Virus record (IMG/VR): IMGVR_UViG_2770939580_000003
Location: 105,062 to 169,061 of that record
Length of the DNA: 64,000 nt
Reading direction: 5' to 3' (one strand)
DNA from: a virus
Taxonomy: Duplodnaviria; Heunggongvirae; Uroviricota; Caudoviricetes
Shown here: positions 2,538-13,821 of the stretch, one piece after another
Numbering within the stretch: position 1 is the stretch's first letter
Layout: each line of letters begins with the position of its first letter
Notes under the pieces: generated by a model
Database searches by the model: none
What the model was told of the DNA's origin: nothing
The model's input: the letters and a program-made list of their open reading frames with translations, nothing else
Translations under genes and position numbers: made by a program

Positions 2538-2775
2538 TATCTTTATTCTTAATAATTGAAACGATTGTCATCCCTCTGATTTTACTTCCTACGGAAATAT
2601 TATTGAGATTATCTTTCCAATCTCTAATCTCAAGTCCATCTCCGATCCATACAAACCCGTATGTACTGCTATTTTCGTCAAAGGTGATGAACACGTAGTT
2701 ACCAAGCTCAGTTACTAGTACGTCTCCATGTTCTGCATGAGTTTCTGCTTTGACTCTCTTGTCGACGATTTCCAC
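2491..2775 (-). CDS. hypothetical phage protein
   Basis: ORF with GGGG RBS. Confidence 0.7.
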   Translation of the reverse strand: MEIVDKRVKAETHAEHGDVLVTELGNYVFITFDENSSTYGFVWIGDGLEIRDWKDNLNNISVGSKIRGMTIVSIIKNKDIEITFKKEVAHGSDV

Positions 2776-2791
2776 TCAATTGTCCCCTTAA

Positions 2792-2953
2792 CTAGAATTT
2801 GCTGTCCTTATAACAGACATTACACTTAACAAAAGCGGTCGTTCCCCAGTGCTCATATTCTTCATCATGGTTTGTTTCATAGTGATCTTCAGAAACAATC
2901 TCGCAATCTGTACTCCCACAATTTAGGCAAGTGATCTGAAATCCATTCTCCAT
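2792..2953 (-). CDS. small zinc-ribbon protein (53 aa, not in ORF track)
   Basis: Hand translation MENGFQITCLNCGSTDC...VKCNVCYKDSKF; CxxC...CxxC; AGGAAGG RBS. Confidence 0.65.
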   Translation of the reverse strand: MENGFQITCLNCGSTDCEIVSEDHYETNHDEEYEHWGTTAFVKCNVCYKDSKF

Positions 2954-3149
2954 CTTATGTTTCCTTCCTATGAAATACAGCTTTTACTATGACTCAAGGC
3001 GTTCAATTAACTCCTGCACCTTGAGTCCATATTCAGTCCTGCTTGCTTTTGCTGATTCAATAACTTTGTTAATGTCACTCTGTTTAGAGACGATCTGTCT
3101 GACCATCTCATCTACAGAGGTTTCACTTATGCATTTGACTGTTTTAAGC

Positions 3150-3506
3150 CTATTCACAAACTACTCTGTCTTTCTGATATTGCTGATTTTTCAGTTCTAC
3201 CGCTTGCGCAAACATTGCACGACACATAATATGTGACAAGTGCTCATCAGAGGTATCTCCAGCCAAATAAGCATATGCATGAATCAACATGTGATTGATG
3301 TGATCTCTTACTTCAATGTTCATCCAATTATCTGCACCATATTTATCTGCTCCATACTTCAAGACTTTCGTCATCTCAAACATTGCAGCAGGATTGAGTA
3401 GATCAAACCGATAAAGGACTTGTGACTGCTTACCACCAAGTTCGTTGGTGACTGTTGGAGCATCCTTCCCTACTCCTTTAACTACTTCGCTCATATATGT
3501 ATTCAT
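3150..3506 (-). CDS. dATP/dGTP diphosphohydrolase-domain protein (DUF5664-like)
   Basis: RFDLL..A..EM.KVL.YGA.KYG.DNW and HL.H..C motifs. Confidence 0.8.
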   Translation of the reverse strand: MNTYMSEVVKGVGKDAPTVTNELGGKQSQVLYRFDLLNPAAMFEMTKVLKYGADKYGADNWMNIEVRDHINHMLIHAYAYLAGDTSDEHLSHIMCRAMFAQAVELKNQQYQKDRVVCE

Positions 3507-5948: not shown

Positions 5949-7097
5949 TTATGCAAATGGATCATCAACTTTGTTGCTATTGCTGCTAGAAAAAGGATCT
6001 TTATCTGTTTGACTAAACGGGTCGTCTGAATTACTAACACTATTGAATGGATCATTACTTGTCAAAGCTACTGTTTTTCTCAATTCTTCTTCAGTTAAAA
6101 GTTCACGCATCAAACTACTCTGAACATAGCTGATTACTTCCAAACCTTTTTTATCTCCATTGGTTACGCGCTCTTGGCGAGTTACTTTCTCTCTACTATC
6201 GACTTGGCTAAACGGATCGTCAGTTCCAATTTCTTCAACAACATCTACATAAGCAAATGTTGCACGGTTATTGTCTTGACCAATAACTTCAATGAAATCA
6301 TAAGTGTTTAGTGACGCAAAGGCATCAGCCATCGAGATTCCTTGTTCTACCTTCTTCTGATAGACCATCATCTCAACATCTTTTGGTTCAGATCTCTCCA
6401 CTCCATTTGTCAAAACGACTGCGTTCACTTTCGTATCACCAGTTTCACTATCTTGATATGTAGTATTGATACCAATCTGCATGTTAAAACGATTTACTTC
6501 AATAAAATCAGGTGATTGGAAATCACAAACATAGTTGATAGTATTTTTATCGACTTTAATTTCTTTGACCTCTCCATCGATAATCACTTTGCCTTCCTCG
6601 TTAATCGGATTAATAAAACTGATTTGTCTTGAGATACCTTTGATTACTTTTCCGTCTTCGGCTTCAAACTCGTATGGGATATATTTCCCCTTAACTTCCA
6701 CCCAACAATCTTTCTCTACGATCTCTTTAAACTTTTCAATTCTATCCCATTCAGGCTCAATGAGATGATATGTATTATCTGGATAGCCTTCTTTATTGAA
6801 TCTTTTATTCCATTCTACTTTTGCGGACTTGCCATGTTGTCTACTATATGGATACGCATATGGCTTTTCTTTTCCTGTGACTTTAACTTTTAATTCATTG
6901 CTCAGTGCCGTTTCAACAATAAATTGAAATACTTTCTTTTTTCCATCTTCTTCAGTTGAATAGAATGGAATGTCTTCCCAATTATCTGTATTCTTATCTT
7001 TTTCTTTAATGGGTTTTACTTTGCCGACGAAATGAAATCCACTATTAAATTCTTTTCCACCATGATTGTTGTTTACCTTGATTTTGTAGTCTGCCAT
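5949..7097 (-). CDS. single-stranded DNA-binding protein (tandem OB-fold-like, acidic tail)
   Basis: beta-rich body; repeated DDPF acidic tail ending DDPFA; paired with recombination ATPase. Confidence 0.7.
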   Translation of the reverse strand: MADYKIKVNNNHGGKEFNSGFHFVGKVKPIKEKDKNTDNWEDIPFYSTEEDGKKKVFQFIVETALSNELKVKVTGKEKPYAYPYSRQHGKSAKVEWNKRFNKEGYPDNTYHLIEPEWDRIEKFKEIVEKDCWVEVKGKYIPYEFEAEDGKVIKGISRQISFINPINEEGKVIIDGEVKEIKVDKNTINYVCDFQSPDFIEVNRFNMQIGINTTYQDSETGDTKVNAVVLTNGVERSEPKDVEMMVYQKKVEQGISMADAFASLNTYDFIEVIGQDNNRATFAYVDVVEEIGTDDPFSQVDSREKVTRQERVTNGDKKGLEVISYVQSSLMRELLTEEELRKTVALTSNDPFNSVSNSDDPFSQTDKDPFSSSNSNKVDDPFA

Positions 7098-7193: not shown

Positions 7194-7266
7194 ATGCTTC
7201 ACCACCTTTTCAAAGTGAAATTGCTGCCTCTATATAATCACGCATAGCGTGTTATTTTCGGTTGAA

Positions 7267-7340
7267 TGGGTCTCATCGGACTCGAACCGATATTATCTGA
7301 TTTATGAGATCAGAGCCTTAACCAATTAGACGAAAGACCC
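7267..7340 (-). tRNA. tRNA with CAU anticodon (Ile2 or elongator Met); CCA not encoded
   Basis: Full cloverleaf: acceptor GGGTCTT/GAGACCC, D stem GTCT/AGGC, anticodon arm CTGAT-CTCATAA-ATCAG, T arm ATCGG-TTCGAGT-CCGAT, A73. Confidence 0.95.
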
Positions 7341-7464
7341 AACTTAACTTCTTGATGAAACTATTATTTGATTAACTTGTTTGGCTTACTTACTCAGTAT
7401 AAGTTTAGTTTTTATATCCGTCAAGTATTATTTTTGTATTTTATTGTTAACCGGGAAATCCCGG

Positions 7465-7836: not shown

Positions 7837-8019
7837 ATACTCAAACCCTCTCGTGATAAAAATGTATTTTCTGGGTGTAAATTATCTTATGTAACTATCA
7901 TAATCCATGTTTATACACTTGACAATCACTGTAAGTAGCCGACTTAAATCTGTTGACAGATGCATAATTATGGATTTACAGTCAAATTGATGTCGTACTT
8001 TGTCGAATATGATAACAGA

Positions 8020-8033
8020 AGAACTTATGTTCG
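8020..8033. promoter_or_regulatory. LexA (Cheo) box near the predicted start site of the tRNA-ssb-ATPase operon
   Basis: AGAACTTATGTTCG fits Firmicute GAAC-N4-GTTC; minus-strand TATAAT at 8039-8044. Confidence 0.7.
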
Positions 8034-8101
8034 TATTTATTATACAACAATCCTATATATTATAAAAGCTTTGGTTTACGTGGTTTACTATGTATAGCTG
8101 C

Positions 8102-8488
8102 TTATCTGCCAAACAGCTTTTTAATGTACTCTTTTACAAGACTCTCTCTTGGTTTGGAAATCGTTATGTACTTCTCTTTATCAGTATCGAAGTATACTTT
8201 TCCATTGTCATAATCTACGCTCTTCATTTTGGTTAAGTTCCCAAGCACACCTTTATCGGTCATGATCATACCATGTCTTTCACTCATTAAATCAAAGAAT
8301 GCATTATTGTTTGTACAATAGACGTACTCTCCATTTTCCGTATATATAACCACTCTATAATCTTTCTTTGTAAACATTTCTTTCTTACAATCTATAACAT
8401 CATCAACTTCAATCCATTCGGCCTCATCCTTAATGTTTTTACCGTCTCTCCTCTGCACCATAATTCTATCTCTAAACAATGCATTCAC
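8102..8488 (-). CDS. stand-alone LytTR DNA-binding protein (no receiver domain)
   Basis: LytTR-like pattern (IYTENGEY...TDKGVLGNLTKMKSVD...VYFD...ITIS); last gene of the agr-like cassette. Confidence 0.75.
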   Translation of the reverse strand: MNALFRDRIMVQRRDGKNIKDEAEWIEVDDVIDCKKEMFTKKDYRVVIYTENGEYVYCTNNNAFFDLMSERHGMIMTDKGVLGNLTKMKSVDYDNGKVYFDTDKEKYITISKPRESLVKEYIKKLFGR

Positions 8489-8501
8489 CTCATTTAAAAT
8501 C

Positions 8502-8534
8502 AGCTCCCCATCCCTACAAGAAGAACAGGGAGCT
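8502..8534 (-). terminator. stem-loop between agrD and lytTR (weak terminator or mRNA stabiliser)
   Basis: AGCTCCC-N19-GGGAGCT; only a short U tract. Confidence 0.45.
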
Positions 8535-8541
8535 TAATTTG

Positions 8542-8676
8542 TTACTTCATTTCTTCTGGTACTGGTTCATTATGAATCACAGTCCAGCTTGCGACATTGG
8601 CACCTACTGTCGCTACTGTCATAAATAAAAATCCTAGGGCAGTTACACCCATTCTAATCATTTTTGATTTAATCAT
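8542..8676 (-). CDS. agrD: AgrD-type cyclic lactone autoinducer peptide precursor (44 aa, not in ORF track)
   Basis: MIKSKMIRMGVTALGFLFMTVATVGANVASWTVIHNEPVPEEMK; GGGAGGTGA RBS; start overlaps the agrB stop. Confidence 0.85.
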   Translation of the reverse strand: MIKSKMIRMGVTALGFLFMTVATVGANVASWTVIHNEPVPEEMK

Positions 8677-9211
8677 TCTTTTCACCTCCCTTCAAGCGAA
8701 TGAGCAGGAGGGACTGAACTAATAGAGCCGCACAAATTAGATAGTCATTTAACAAAAAACTCACTATTATCATGCCTATAGATATCAACTTTAAGTACTT
8801 AAAATGCTCCTTGAGAATCTTAGTTTGGTTCTCGATGTTCGACGGTGCGAAGATTGCCACCAACCCTAAACTTAATAAATTCATAAGCAGTGTGTAGTCA
8901 CTTAAAAGATATCCAAACTTCGCAATAAGAGCGATTAAAATGGTTGAAATAACAAGACATACTTCAGGTTTTTTAGCGTGATACCCACCAGAAACCATCC
9001 TTAAAGATGAGAAAGCAACTAAGCATATTATTACTTCGCTAACGATATTTAGTAATAAGCCGATAATCAATAATAGTACTACAGGCGCAATGTTTGATAT
9101 TAAGAATTTGATACCGTATCTCGTTATGCCTAATGGTGGCATTTCATCTGGAAATTTTTCAACCAGCCTAGTTGATATTCGTGTGGCGAAGCTATCAATC
9201 ATACATTCCAC
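8669..9211 (-). CDS. agrB: AgrB autoinducer-processing membrane peptidase (likely start 9202)
   Basis: LRMVSGGYHAKKPEVC with His-X6-Cys catalytic pair; FAPS motif; multi-TM. Confidence 0.92.
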   Translation of the reverse strand: MECMIDSFATRISTRLVEKFPDEMPPLGITRYGIKFLISNIAPVVLLLIIGLLLNIVSEVIICLVAFSSLRMVSGGYHAKKPEVCLVISTILIALIAKFGYLLSDYTLLMNLLSLGLVAIFAPSNIENQTKILKEHFKYLKLISIGMIIVSFLLNDYLICAALLVQSLLLIRLKGGEKND

Positions 9212-9842
9212 TCTTTTCTTTTTTAATATCTATGTACATTAAATTTATTAAACACACTCCCCAGAACAAAATAGTCAGATATATATTTTCAACTGTTTTC
9301 ACATTGTACAACAGCGCCATAATTACAATGGCAATGAGTGTGCTAAAAATGTTAATTTTATTTAACTTAATTTTGAAACTATAATCGTAGGACATAGTAC
9401 TGAACCAGATTCTTTTATGTCTTAGGATAAGTGTAAGAACTATTAAAAATCCATTTGCTAACAGTTGCACTAGTGAGCCAAACTCACTTGATGCTTGTGT
9501 AAAGTTTAATCCTGAACTAAGCATAAACAATGCAACAACTGAGAACTGAGCCACTATTTGTGCCACAAAACCATAACATGCCAACTTGAAACTCTCCCAT
9601 AATTTTATTCTAAAATAGAAAGTTAATGATAATACCAATAAGGCAAAACATAGCACTGGAACAAATCCTAAAATTGTCTCATACCCTTTAAGAAAGAAAG
9701 TTCCTATTGAAATTATTAAATTAGTTACTAGAATCTCTTTCCAGTAGTCTTTAAAGCTGATCTTGAAACAGCCAAATGCAAACATAAATATTGTTATTCC
9801 ATCCATTAGACTCATTAGCGCATACACGATATCGTTCTTCAT
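9195..9842 (-). CDS. AgrC-sensor-like polytopic membrane protein lacking a histidine-kinase domain
   Basis: 215 aa, about 6-7 hydrophobic segments; ends just after the last TM; stop overlaps the agrB start. Confidence 0.75.
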   Translation of the reverse strand: MKNDIVYALMSLMDGITIFMFAFGCFKISFKDYWKEILVTNLIISIGTFFLKGYETILGFVPVLCFALLVLSLTFYFRIKLWESFKLACYGFVAQIVAQFSVVALFMLSSGLNFTQASSEFGSLVQLLANGFLIVLTLILRHKRIWFSTMSYDYSFKIKLNKINIFSTLIAIVIMALLYNVKTVENIYLTILFWGVCLINLMYIDIKKEKSGMYD

Positions 9843-9878: not shown

Positions 9879-9935
9879 ACAAAGATAATATGTATTTCTT
9901 GATTTAAATATAACATGGTCTCTATCAAGAGTCAA
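9879..9935 (-). promoter_or_regulatory. sigmaA promoter of the agr-like operon with an inverted downstream operator-like motif
   Basis: TTGACT(9930-35)-17-TATATT(9907-12); ACAAAGATAATA on the opposite strand at 9879-9890. Confidence 0.7.
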
Positions 9936-9978
9936 CAGTTAAAACAACAAAAAAAGAATAAAGTTTGCACTCTATTCT

Positions 9979-11013
9979 TTAAAGGTTGTACACTTTTTTA
10001 ATTGTTGGAACATTCAAGAATTCTGACTTCATGGAACCGTAATGATACAGGCCATTTTTATCCTTTTTAATGTTGTAATGATCACAAACAATACTGTATT
10101 CTTCTTCTTCTAGCTTCCCACGTTCAACGTATAGATCCTTTGCCATCTTAAGCATTCCGCTATTTCGAACATTTACAATAGTTAGAAGGGGTAAGTTGTG
10201 CCACTCAGCAATCTTAGATAGTCTCATTGTTACTAAGTAAATTGATGCTGGTTCTTCAACGCCTTGTTTGATACTAGAATTCACAGCGGATCTAATAATA
10301 TAGTCGTTATCAATCAAATTATTGTGAGTAACTTTTGTACTGGGTACTAAGTTGCCATTGTTCTTAATATATTTATCTTCTTTATTTGCTATCCTGAGGA
10401 TATTATACAGATATCCTGTTATAGTTATCTCTCTGATTTCTTGACCATTACGAGATTCGTTAAATAATTTTATCTTATATTTATCTATTTCATCTGTCTC
10501 AGTTATATGTTCCATTTTCATACTGAGTAATTCACTATTCTCTCGTCCCATTATACCTTCAAACAATGATTGAACCACGGCTTTATCTTGAAAGTTTAAG
10601 CAGCCTTCTACTACGTTTTCTATATCCTCTTCAGTAAATAAAGTTTGTCGACTATCATCCACAAACTGACTATACCATTCAAAAGATGTTACCGCATTTA
10701 GTGGATTAATATTATCTTTACGTAAGTCTTGTTCTATGGCCCAACCTATGTAGTTGTTGATAATACTTCCAGCCTGTTGCAAAGATGATACTTTTGTAGA
10801 CTTTAATAAATATAGAAATTGCGATATTTCTTGAAGATTAAAATCATATAGATCTTTATCAAGCTTTTTTTCCATTATAGAAACTCTTTTTAATACTCGA
10901 CCATATGCCTTTTTAGTAGCTTCGCTTAAATTTTGAAGATATCTGTCTTTTTGTTCTTTATTAAAAAATTCATCATCATATATTTTATTCACTCTTATCG
11001 CCTCCAAAAACAT
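9979..11013 (-). CDS. MrpR/SroF (YopR)-like lytic-cycle repressor, degenerate integrase fold
   Basis: KDLYDFNL.EI..FL..L and LFEGI.G...SEL patterns; HxxR replaced by VNVR; follows SroE-like gene. Confidence 0.8.
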   Translation of the reverse strand: MFLEAIRVNKIYDDEFFNKEQKDRYLQNLSEATKKAYGRVLKRVSIMEKKLDKDLYDFNLQEISQFLYLLKSTKVSSLQQAGSIINNYIGWAIEQDLRKDNINPLNAVTSFEWYSQFVDDSRQTLFTEEDIENVVEGCLNFQDKAVVQSLFEGIMGRENSELLSMKMEHITETDEIDKYKIKLFNESRNGQEIREITITGYLYNILRIANKEDKYIKNNGNLVPSTKVTHNNLIDNDYIIRSAVNSSIKQGVEEPASIYLVTMRLSKIAEWHNLPLLTIVNVRNSGMLKMAKDLYVERGKLEEEEYSIVCDHYNIKKDKNGLYHYGSMKSEFLNVPTIKKVYNL

Positions 11014-12304
11014 TTACAAAATAATCAAAAAGTTTCTCACGAATTCTTTTGTTGCCCGTAAGAGATTTCTTTGCATTCAAAAGTGGCACAAATTCATCAG
11101 CATTTTTACTAATAGTATCAATATACTTCTCTATTTCATCAAAATCAATTTCATTGTCTTGCATATATCGAGACAATACAATGTAGCCAATAAACATTAG
11201 TGGATGACCCATGAACTCGTTTTTTCTTTCATTGATGTTCTTTGAAAACTCATTGGGGTAACTACCTGCAAGATAAACAAAAAACTCGTTTAGATACTTT
11301 GATATCTTTATGACATCTAATTGTCTTTCAATTGTATAGGAACGATCAATTGCATATGACATAATATCAAAAGTTGTTAGATCTCCAGCTAAATAACTAA
11401 CTGTGCTGCCTGAAGCAATTTGCTTTCCGATTTCAGATTTACGCTGAAGGTCTGCTACTACTTTATCAGACATTCTTTCTTGTGCTAATTCTTTTCTTCT
11501 TTCTTTATTTAAAACATTGATTGTATTTAACTGACTAAAGAAACGTTTTGCAGTCTCTTCGTCATAAACTCTTATTGATAATATTTCGTGTAATTCAATG
11601 TCTGGATTAATACTGAGAGCAGCGATAAACCCTTGTAATCGATGAAAACCATCGAGAATAGATACAATTGCACCATCATTTATGGTTAATGATTTAGAGT
11701 TAGTGTCATAACTAACAGGCTCAACTTCAGTTGAGTACACGTTCAAAGTAATCATGTCCTCAAAGTATTGATTTTCAGACACTTTGGATGCAATTCTTTT
11801 CACACTAGTCTTATTAACGATTGGTGTTTTGACTATTCCACCTGATTTATTTTCTTTATATGTTACTCCACGTTGAGTCTCTTCCTCATAAATTATGAGC
11901 TGGCTCTCAACCATTTTTACTAATTCTTTAATATTGATTTTAGTAACATAGCTATCGAACTTAATTTCAATAACCTCTTTAATTGTGAGCGGTAAATATA
12001 ATTTATATTGATCTTTATCTTTTAATGTACGTTCAGCATCTCTTATTTCTCTTACACCAAAATACGTTTCTGGATTGGGATTTGAATTGTCTGCATCATG
12101 CATTGCAGATACTATACCTATCAAGTAGTGTGCATCAAATTCAGATATCACTTCTTCATTCTGGGAGATTTTTTGCACCATACCAAAAGGTACATTATAA
12201 TCAGCAAGTTTTAAATTAAGCTCATATTGTTTTTGTCTGGAATTTTGAATCAACTTTAAATTTTCTAATACTTCTTTTTCAATAATGTTACGATCTACTT
12301 TCAT
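10985..12304 (-). CDS. SroE (YopQ)-like DGQHR/DndB-domain protein
   Basis: ILDGFHRL motif; directly upstream of the MrpR-like gene as in SPbeta. Confidence 0.75.
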   Translation of the reverse strand: MKVDRNIIEKEVLENLKLIQNSRQKQYELNLKLADYNVPFGMVQKISQNEEVISEFDAHYLIGIVSAMHDADNSNPNPETYFGVREIRDAERTLKDKDQYKLYLPLTIKEVIEIKFDSYVTKINIKELVKMVESQLIIYEEETQRGVTYKENKSGGIVKTPIVNKTSVKRIASKVSENQYFEDMITLNVYSTEVEPVSYDTNSKSLTINDGAIVSILDGFHRLQGFIAALSINPDIELHEILSIRVYDEETAKRFFSQLNTINVLNKERRKELAQERMSDKVVADLQRKSEIGKQIASGSTVSYLAGDLTTFDIMSYAIDRSYTIERQLDVIKISKYLNEFFVYLAGSYPNEFSKNINERKNEFMGHPLMFIGYIVLSRYMQDNEIDFDEIEKYIDTISKNADEFVPLLNAKKSLTGNKRIREKLFDYFVNVFGGDKSE

Positions 12305-12457: not shown

Positions 12458-12664
12458 TTAGAGACTTTTATCATTTAACCATTTATGTAAATCTAAATTT
12501 GTTTTTACTACTTTATTCTCCTGTATGTCGTAAATTCTATAACCATTAAACAAAAAATTATTTAGCTCATGTGGTTTTTCCGTTCCTAAATTGAGACACT
12601 TCCAAGTTTCAACTTTCAACTCTTTATCATAATCTATAAGCTTCATTAACCAGTATCTCTTCAT
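12458..12664 (-). CDS. hypothetical protein
   Basis: ORF with AGGTGGAG RBS, downstream of mazF. Confidence 0.7.
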   Translation of the reverse strand: MKRYWLMKLIDYDKELKVETWKCLNLGTEKPHELNNFLFNGYRIYDIQENKVVKTNLDLHKWLNDKSL

Positions 12665-12733: not shown

Positions 12734-13108
12734 TTACAACGAAAGAGATAACTGTAGTGCCTTGTTAATTGCATTCCCAAAGTGTCTAGGTAGTTCGGCA
12801 ATCTTAAAATCAAGCTGATCTTTTGATACAGTCATTATCTGTTCCAACAAAATGATACTATCGTCATATAGCCCAATCTCTTCTTTTTCTACTTTTACAT
12901 GTGTAGGCATAGGCTTTTTAACTCTGCTTGTTACTGGTGCAACAATTACTACTGGACTATATTTGTTACCCATATCATTTCCTAATACTACACATGGTCT
13001 CTCTCCGCTCTGTACACTTCCTTTGTTTCTACCTAAGTTCACATTCCACATATCTAAGCGCTTTACGTCTTTCATCATTCGCTCCATTGCTACCGCCATC
13101 TCAAACAC
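12734..13108 (-). CDS. mazF: MazF/PemK-family endoribonuclease, no adjacent antitoxin
   Basis: GSVQSGERPCVVLGND...SPVVIVAPVTS...THV...DSIILLEQI.TVSK. Confidence 0.92.
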   Translation of the reverse strand: MFEMAVAMERMMKDVKRLDMWNVNLGRNKGSVQSGERPCVVLGNDMGNKYSPVVIVAPVTSRVKKPMPTHVKVEKEEIGLYDDSIILLEQIMTVSKDQLDFKIAELPRHFGNAINKALQLSLSL

Positions 13109-13338: not shown

Positions 13339-13821
13339 ATGAAAAGAAAAGATGGATGGAACGTCGATGATGATAATTTATTAGCTAGCACGGTACTAAT
13401 GTACATCGAATCTGGCAAGACTCAGTTGAAAGCCTTTGAGGATGTAGGATTAAAACTTAGTAGAACCTCTGCTGCCTGTGGGTTCAGGTGGAATTCAACT
13501 GTAAGGCATAGATATATCAAAAGTATTGCTGAGGCAAAGACTCATAAAATAAAAAGAAATTATAAAAAGACGTATTCAAACGAAGAGCTGTCAATTGATA
13601 GTATTATCTCATGCCTTCTGGCTCTTAAGGATGATCTACAGCGCGCTGAGATAGAGAAGAGTATAATTAGTAAGAAGATACAGAACGTATCATTAGAAAT
13701 CAATGCTAGACGTTCTGAAAGGCATTTAGATGCTTTGGCAAATAAAGAAGCCCTTTCATTATTATTGTCTAAAGCTGCTGAGCTTGGGCTGTTTGAACAT
13801 AACAAAAAACCCGCCATTTAA
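13339..13821 (+). CDS. RsfA-family transcriptional regulator
   Basis: DGW..DDD.LLASTVL.YI..G.TQLKAFE.VG..LSRTSAACGFRWNSTVR signature. Confidence 0.9.
   Translation: MKRKDGWNVDDDNLLASTVLMYIESGKTQLKAFEDVGLKLSRTSAACGFRWNSTVRHRYIKSIAEAKTHKIKRNYKKTYSNEELSIDSIISCLLALKDDLQRAEIEKSIISKKIQNVSLEINARRSERHLDALANKEALSLLLSKAAELGLFEHNKKPAI

Follow-up and report, generated by a model that had tools for sequence, protein, structure and literature searches.

The agr system is the textbook example of peptide sensing via a histidine kinase and a response regulator. To our knowledge, arbitrium is the only well-understood signal made by phages for the choice between lysis and lysogeny. The arbitrium signal is a linear hexapeptide; Opp imports it, and a TPR receptor in the cytoplasm binds it. 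The subject here is an agr derivative carried by a phage and equipped with neither a kinase nor a receiver. It is a cassette of four genes on the minus strand, at positions 8102-9842 of a 64,000-nucleotide (nt) stretch of viral DNA (positions 105,062 to 169,061 of the IMG/VR record IMGVR_UViG_2770939580_000003, Caudoviricetes). This whole stretch is referred to as the window.

Several described systems share parts with the cassette. In the LytTR regulatory systems (LRS), a membrane inhibitor sequesters a LytTR regulator (PMC6193735), and these systems are the source of the working model used here. In SPbeta, the integrase-fold master repressor MrpR binds the aimR promoter (PMC10516654). According to the available text of Hargreaves et al. 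2014, the C. difficile phage phiCDHM1 retains a full AgrC kinase and is thought to use a host regulator (PMC3901668). The same text notes in passing that three Brevibacillus phages (Abouo, Davies, and Emery) have kinase-less AgrC-like genes, and no LytTR gene is mentioned in that part of the account (PMC3901668). Papers on the autoinducing peptides (AIPs) of Paenibacillus polymyxa describe a canonical locus with agrC and agrA. A full-text search of the literature returned no description of the four genes as a unit, of their chromosomal spread, or of their link to MrpR. The finding described below is real and conserved, is not a truncation, and is partly anticipated in the literature.

The cassette is an intact, self-contained operon that derives from agr quorum sensing and has no kinase and no receiver. 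This structural description of the module is held with high confidence. The module consists of four genes and spans ~1.8 kb. The genes are tightly packed with overlapping or near-abutting ends in the order sensor - agrB - agrD - LytTR, and the open reading frames agree with those listed in an earlier note that was made from the letters of the window alone. In the direction of transcription, the genes are as follows.

9195-9842, minus strand: membrane protein of 215 amino acids (aa) with seven helices, a probable AgrC-type sensor domain without DHp or ATPase domains
8669-9211, minus strand: AgrB peptidase, AgrD-processing (PF04647, phrog_10353, His78 and Cys85)
8542-8676, minus strand: AgrD precursor of 44 aa (TIGR04223), predicted ring SWTVI
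8102-8488, minus strand: predicted stand-alone LytTR-fold protein without a receiver; the likely start is TTG 8479, which gives 125 aa (else 128 aa)

The first gene encodes a polytopic protein that ends five residues past helix 7, and its stop overlaps the AgrB start (GTG 9211 or ATG 9202). The gene encodes the kinase-free protein described in the earlier note. An AlphaFold model, with a predicted local distance difference test score (pLDDT) of 82.6, contains seven helices. A loop at residues 143-161 holds conserved basic residues and a five-residue tail follows helix 7. The positive-inside rule places the N-terminus outside and the tail inside. The protein matched nothing in Pfam or NCBIfam (in Pfam, up to an expectation value (E) of 1, there were chance-level rows only), and phrog_15604 is a full-length match. 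An exhaustive HMMER search of 1.84 billion representatives gave 31 representative homologues, all of which were 171-236 aa long. A second search added 25 further homologues, again all short (204-237 aa) and all annotated as 'hypothetical proteins'. Fusions of the sensor to LytTR or to a kinase were sought among close relatives, and solely stand-alone proteins of ~215 aa were found. The kinase-less form is the normal state of this membrane-protein family. The earlier note had reasoned that the window's protein would be a truncation if its homologues were normally full-length kinases. All 31 representatives lie at 171-236 aa. A truncated copy of a kinase is ruled out because the homologues, including the 25 further ones, are uniformly ~215 aa long.

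Evidence for the ancestry of the membrane protein comes from a profile of the sensor family, which was run on 400 genomes spread across the phylum. Outside Paenibacillaceae, the profile matched residues 3-183/204 of 446-aa kinases with SPOB_a and HATPase_c/HATPase_c_5 domains, and these kinases are encoded directly upstream of AgrB. An hhalign comparison of the sensor family with the N-termini of AgrB-adjacent kinases gave a probability of 97.7% (E 1.5e-12, 174 columns). In the ESM Atlas, searched with the Atlas's own model, the nearest named structural clusters were HATPase_c_5 kinases, with template-modelling (TM) scores of 0.68-0.69 over residues 1-213. Likewise, GHKL-domain proteins are among the AlphaFold-cluster matches that follow the family's own members. 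When the ESM Atlas was searched by shape with the model of the membrane protein predicted here, nothing useful came out, and a Foldseek search of that model against the PDB and the Swiss-Prot AlphaFold models returned only chance-level rows resembling G-protein-coupled receptors (E > 0.3). The profile and structure comparison with AgrC sensors that the earlier note had proposed thus found homology. In other words, the alignments and models support the membrane protein as a stand-alone homologue of the AgrC-type sensor domain.

The same profile also matched membrane proteins of ~160 aa with five helices in other Bacillota, each of which has a separate kinase piece of ~300 aa. The kinase piece consists of two helices, SPOB_a, and HATPase_c, and it adjoins AgrB or a REC-LytTR regulator. 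The fused kinase and the kinase-less form may be linked by this split AgrC arrangement as an intermediate.

The signal pair of AgrB and AgrD is present and looks competent. AgrB matches PF04647 (E 8e-25) and phrog_10353 (E 4e-29). The His/Cys pair that had been read in AgrB is present as His78 and Cys85, which are seven residues apart and thus have the spacing of the catalytic pair in the textbook enzyme. The agrD gene starts at an ATG behind a GGGAGGTG ribosome-binding site. This start yields the 44 aa that the earlier note gave for AgrD, and the product scores 25.1 bits against TIGR04223 (cut-off 19). It fits the agr pattern of a precursor with an amphipathic leader, a five-residue ring that starts at Cys or Ser, and an acidic recognition tail at the C-terminus. 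Its C-terminal half reads A-SWTVI-HNEPVPEEMK and contains no Cys. The mature product is predicted to be a five-residue Ser lactone with the ring SWTVI. In the AgrDs of the phage clade described below, an S-W-x-x-x ring is kept and is followed by an E-x-VP-x-E tail, and the last three ring residues vary (SWTVI, SWTLI, SWTIV, SWTIL, SWTFL, SWLLF, and SWAAL). This variation looks like that of pherotypes. Chromosomal AgrDs mostly have a Cys ring, then GHRPEVPAELLKK.

The fourth protein is, in its predicted model and in searches with its family, a LytTR fold alone without a receiver, as had been proposed. Its gene more likely starts at TTG 8479, because the resulting 125 aa fit the relatives, which are Paenibacillus 'hypothetical proteins' of 119-127 aa. 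PF04397 matches 24 of the 33 members of the LytTR family, and the family profile matches the LytTR chains of ComE and AgrA (E 1e-5 to 7e-4). The predicted model (pLDDT 89) has the LytTR domain of AgrA as its top PDB matches (4xqn, 4g4k, and 3bs1; E 4e-6, TM by target 0.78). Furthermore, basic residues are present at positions that align with the DNA-contact region of AgrA. A separate observation comes from the DNA assembly of a relative. In the middle of its LytTR gene (8137-8397 of the window), a diverged stretch of the same length takes the place of the sequence seen here, and the remainder of the cassette is 90-95% alike. This diverged middle suggests that part of the regulator has been swapped by mosaic exchange.

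Phages did not invent this design, which is found widely as a chromosomal module in Paenibacillaceae. The sensor family was found in 259 of 401 sampled Paenibacillaceae genomes, which represent 17 of 19 genera. A survey of gene neighbourhoods, which had been suggested for prophages of this bacterial family, showed that the four-gene set recurs: the order sensor-AgrB-AgrD-LytTR was present in 29 of the 30 further genome loci that were retrieved (agrD and the LytTR gene each went undetected in one locus). The sensor gene was coupled to the LytTR gene in 30/31 genome loci. No conserved fifth gene was found across the cassette loci. Phages Abouo and Emery have the same four-gene order. The recurrence of this arrangement is far beyond chance, and across Paenibacillaceae the four genes are passed on together.

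In a maximum-likelihood tree of the sensors, the MrpR-linked proteins form one well-supported major clade (22 of 64 rows), and the proteins of the Brevibacillus phages Abouo and Emery group in a clade of their own within the other branch. Because these two groups are separate, the module was captured by phages at least twice. In searches of a phage collection, no match was found with the region by blastn or with the membrane protein by tblastn, and matches came from AgrB and MrpR only. The host chromosome carries a second kinase-less cassette on another contig (C1:446945-447553 and its neighbours). It has the ring SLAWV, and its sensor is 23% identical to that of the phage. The genome contains only two AgrB genes, and both are in kinase-less cassettes. 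Cross-talk or cross-inhibition between the phage and host cassettes is possible.

The window lies within an island of ~160 kb on contig C2 (~230-390 kb, with the bounds estimated from GC content), which has 35% GC as compared to 47% GC for the genome. Families encoded in the island include a phage helicase, exonuclease V, an integrase, and a terminase. The MrpR-like protein has 33% identity to the yopR products of phi3T and SPbeta, and the yopQ-yopR neighbourhood is as in the phi3T gene order. The island is a large SPbeta-like prophage of a Paenibacillus. The phage setting assumed in the earlier note is thereby confirmed, with the cassette located beside MrpR. The features around the four genes are as follows.

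8502-8534, minus strand: hairpin with a 14-bp stem in the gap between agrD and the LytTR gene, a terminator-like scan match
9879-9890, plus strand: inverted copy of the 12-nt motif ACAAAGATAATA, downstream of the cassette -10
9907-9935, minus strand: predicted cassette promoter (TTGACT, 17 nt, TATATT) with TG ahead of the -10, 10/12 matches
9949-9979, minus strand: hairpin and T-run terminating the mrpR-like gene, directly upstream of the cassette promoter; read from sequence
9979-11013, minus strand: MrpR/YopR-like master-repressor homologue (PF22822 and PF22823), immediately upstream of the cassette
10985-12304, minus strand: YopQ/DndB-like gene (PF14072), upstream of the MrpR-like gene

In a deep phage clade, the cassette has a fixed position directly behind the master-repressor gene, and nine further diverged loci of prophages or metagenomes keep it there. 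Prophages of four other Paenibacillus species share synteny across the block MazF - small orf - YopQ - MrpR - cassette - orf7465, with proteins that are 36-80% identical. The YopQ-MrpR-cassette core is also present in four more distant loci, whose sensors are 39, 36, 32, and 23% identical. These distant loci belong to genomes and metagenome contigs of 33-36% GC, and three of the four have a PemK/MazF gene upstream. The cassette is not general to MrpR phages: in Sundance and Perkons, the genes for the MrpR homologues are followed by other genes. No AimR (PF22871) was found in this genome or in four carrier genomes, and the B. subtilis control was positive. Among the HATPase_c and Response_reg matches on contig C2, none fell inside the prophage bounds of 230-390 kb. 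Likewise, no kinase was linked to the cassette in ~30 loci.

Other genes accompany this core. A MazF/PemK-like gene (12734-13108), a 68-aa orf (12458-12664), and a divergent gene for a Myb-like regulator (13339-13821) are syntenic with YopQ-MrpR-cassette in four of four related Paenibacillus prophages. Host MazF is part of the phi3T arbitrium circuit, according to the available text of a report on that circuit (PMC10769878). Beyond the other end of the cassette, a tRNA-Met gene (anticodon CAT) is located at 7266-7341 on the minus strand, between orf7465 and a gene for a protein resembling single-strand-binding proteins. A protein of 382 aa encoded at 5949-7097 has C-terminal repeated DDPF motifs, like the acidic tails of single-strand-binding proteins, and is conserved downstream of the cassette in related prophages.

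The predicted cassette promoter is of the sigma-A type and is the best promoter-like site in the region, with 10 of 12 matches. Nine related loci keep its TTGAC-type -35 and, together with the TG, its TATATT-type -10, and the stem and T-run that end the mrpR-like gene have the same architecture in four related prophages. In eight other prophage loci, the gap between agrD and the LytTR gene likewise holds a hairpin; its sequence differs, its position is the same, and in some loci it is without a T-run. This hairpin would be either a leaky terminator or an RNA-stabilising stem, and it may hold the LytTR protein below the membrane protein in amount. Such a limit on the amount of LytTR protein would suit a sequestration switch.

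The 12-nt motif ACAAAGATAATA is present in 14 copies in the window as compared to 1.5 expected (sites include 18072, 20329, 24009, 30263, 39835, and 44128). Most copies abut the -35-like hexamer of a sigma-A-type promoter and point in the direction of transcription. Unlike most copies, the one at the cassette promoter is inverted and located downstream of the -10. By analogy with SPBRE and MrpR, ACAAAGATAATA may be the operator of the MrpR-like repressor.

The gap between the LytTR gene and orf7465 (7837-8101) consists of 265 nt that are non-coding and are conserved in five prophages more than the flanking proteins. It contains a TATAAT box followed directly by CGAACATAAGTTC, a LexA-type box, at 8021-8033. 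A second promoter is located at 7925-7897, with paired TGTCAAG boxes further on. An early promoter under SOS control may be located in this gap, which would also be a candidate target for the LytTR protein.

How could a signal pass from a receptor to a regulator in such a module? No phosphorelay is possible within it, because the DHp/ATPase and receiver domains are absent, and direct coupling is the simplest model for the same reason. Judging from the domains that the genes encode, the signal is probably passed on without phosphorylation. By analogy with LRS, the best-fitting mechanism would be a peptide-gated capture or release of the LytTR protein. In this mechanism, AgrB would cyclise AgrD to produce a secreted five-residue Ser-lactone peptide with the ring SWTVI, and the cyclic peptide would bind the membrane sensor from outside. 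The basic cytoplasmic loop of the sensor (143-161), together with its short C-terminal tail, would hold or release the LytTR protein by direct contact. This step is modelled on the membrane inhibitors of LRS, and the model allows either release or capture as the direction of the switch. The LytTR protein, once freed or captured, would alter the transcription of phage genes. As its target, the best guess would be either the cassette itself or the early promoter with the SOS box that is located just downstream. As a whole, the contact-switch model is favoured, although only slightly.

A further proposal concerns the purpose of the switch. Lysogens or infected cells would gauge kin-phage density and use it in the choice of lysogeny, maintenance, or induction, as arbitrium does in Bacillus SPbeta phages. 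The cassette may stand in for arbitrium, which these phages lack. The full form of this proposal is that, in a whole clade of SPbeta-like phages of Paenibacillaceae, an agr-derived lactone and a contact-switched LytTR protein took the place of arbitrium and together set the lysis-lysogeny choice or induction. It is put forward tentatively, as a reading that has a real chance of being correct and a greater chance of being wrong.

Several observations weigh against the contact switch or against its use in the phage's own decisions. The LytTR protein of the window scores 18.2 bits against the Pfam LytTR model, which is below the gathering score of 22.6; the LytTR assignment is made because of the PF04397 matches of the family, the profile matches, and the predicted model, and not because of the protein's own Pfam score. 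The LytTR family is not basic, with a median isoelectric point of 6.0 (range 5.2-9.1). As a result, DNA binding by the LytTR protein is plausible but not assured. Direct repeats of the LytTR type were not found upstream of the first gene in 33 loci, phage and chromosomal, by a scan for 9-bp repeats with a period of 20-22 and at most one mismatch, from which degenerate or distant sites escape. The direct-repeat scan also found none downstream of the LytTR gene and at the divergent region of mazF. Chromosomal relatives have a conserved box before a weak -35 and no evident direct repeat. Two soil metatranscriptome runs yielded low-depth contigs that are 90-95% alike and cover agrD-agrB, the sensor gene, and mrpR. 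These contigs show neither strand nor level and could come from DNA carry-over, so they are at best weak support for transcription and are not counted as evidence here. Split sensors with a separate kinase gene exist in other Bacillota, which makes a kinase partner in trans conceivable. Finally, a cassette with a different peptide is present in the host itself, and the phage copy could therefore act on host physiology instead of the phage switch.

This last point leads to the rival explanation that survives best, in which the four genes are a lysogenic-conversion cassette. Such a cassette would manipulate or jam host peptide signalling, for example by cross-inhibition of the host's own kinase-less cassette, or it would mark kin lysogens, and it would have no role in the lysis-lysogeny choice or in induction. 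The module is primarily chromosomal in Paenibacillaceae, and the host copy makes a different ring, SLAWV. In Abouo, the cassette is located between the integrase and a CI-like repressor, which is the usual site of lysogen-expressed cargo. The strong sigma-A-type promoter of the cassette's own also fits lysogenic conversion. However, cargo genes usually turn over, whereas the position behind MrpR/YopQ persists down to a sensor identity of 23%. The presence of the phage-wide promoter motif in the cassette promoter also argues against mere cargo, as does the finding that AimR was not detected in the five carrier genomes searched. Lysogenic conversion is considered unlikely, yet it deserves to be taken seriously.

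It is quite improbable that a split receptor is at work, in which the membrane protein is one of the halves and signals to a host kinase encoded elsewhere, with the LytTR protein regulated indirectly. Several other Bacillota do have a sensor piece of ~160 aa and a kinase piece of ~300 aa beside AgrB or a REC-LytTR regulator. However, the Paenibacillaceae protein is complete with seven helices, two of which are located on the kinase piece in the split systems. Furthermore, no kinase is linked to the cassette in the ~30 loci or within the prophage bounds, and the LytTR protein lacks a receiver that could take up a phosphoryl group.

Just as improbable is the explanation that the membrane protein is not a receptor. 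In that case, it would be an accessory of peptide maturation, export, or self-immunity, or a decoy for the peptide, and the LytTR protein would be an ordinary autoregulator. The homology of the membrane protein is to a sensor domain and not to a protease or a transporter, for which Pfam gave no match, and an export factor would not need its coupling to a LytTR gene in 30/31 loci. A precedent exists in S. aureus, where AIP maturation requires MroQ as a second membrane protein, according to the available text of the report (PMC9388083); a decoy or immunity factor was also the alternative offered by the earlier note itself. A decaying, functionless remnant of agrBDCA, although suggested by the missing kinase and receiver domains, is close to negligible as an explanation and is already contradicted by the conservation of four open frames in hundreds of genomes, of the AgrB catalytic residues, and of the promoter, ribosome-binding sites, and intergenic hairpin.

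The cassette is a widespread natural version of agr in which the signal factory, the sensor domain, and the putative DNA-binding domain remain and both phospho-partners are missing. If the contact-switch model is true, it shows that a peptide receptor can address a transcription factor by contact alone, and LRS would gain their first identified signal. If the more doubtful reading, in which the switch replaced arbitrium, is also true, these phages have a second phage-phage communication system that is mechanistically unrelated to arbitrium, and agr has a first phosphorylation-free signalling route. The presence of a different peptide system at the master-repressor locus makes the repeated evolution of phage communication testable. 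The module is small, has pherotype-like peptide variants, and should be portable, all of which make it an attractive orthogonal signalling part.

How does the cassette compare with the known systems? It shares with the canonical agr of S. aureus (agrBDCA) the His/Cys peptidase AgrB and a short AgrD whose five-residue ring is followed by an acidic tail (E-x-VP-x-E). Its membrane domain is homologous to AgrC-type sensors, and its output protein has an AgrA-type LytTR fold. Unlike canonical agr, it has no DHp/ATPase on the receptor and no receiver on the regulator. Its order is sensor-agrB-agrD-LytTR, its ring residue is predicted to be Ser (lactone) and not Cys, and AgrA-type direct repeats were not found at its promoter by a simple repeat scan. 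The agrB/agrD/agrC set of C. difficile phage phiCDHM1 is likewise a phage-borne agr-type signal pair with a receptor homologue and no complete AgrA. Unlike that set, the cassette has no kinase and brings its own LytTR output protein.

The likeness to the LRS of S. mutans, HdrRM and BrsRM, that the earlier note had pointed out holds in part. In both, a receiver-less LytTR protein is paired with a polytopic membrane protein in a kinase-free system. However, the likeness does not extend to homology of the membrane proteins or to gene order. The membrane protein of the cassette has no DUF3021 or DUF2154 and no similarity to HdrM/BrsM; its gene comes first and the LytTR gene last, with agrB and agrD between them. 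The cassette also has a built-in peptide-signal pair, whereas the signals of LRS are unknown. The direct repeats typical of LRS (~10 bp upstream of the -35) were not found in the cassette by the repeat scan.

The Brevibacillus phages Abouo (gp44-47), Davies, and Emery are the closest in content. They are temperate and carry the same four genes in the same order in a lysogeny region. Their fourth gene is annotated as a 'peptidase' (in the Abouo record) or as hypothetical, and Emery has two tandem sensor paralogues ahead of AgrB (1936-2601 and 2669-3337). Unlike the prophage in the window, these phages are of 45-58 kb and have a CI/Cro-type switch, not MrpR. The sensors of Abouo and Emery fall into a separate clade, which indicates a separate capture.

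Arbitrium (aimR-aimP-aimX of SPbeta and phi3T) differs from the cassette in its parts. The cassette has no AimR homology, and its signal would be a cyclic lactone acting at the membrane. The cassette is located downstream of mrpR, whereas aimR is upstream of the yop operon. The two systems are alike in their setting: both are peptide systems in the yopQ-yopR/mrpR neighbourhood, and both have pherotype-like variation. The aimR promoter is bound by MrpR in SPbeta, and here a phage-wide motif is present in the cassette promoter.

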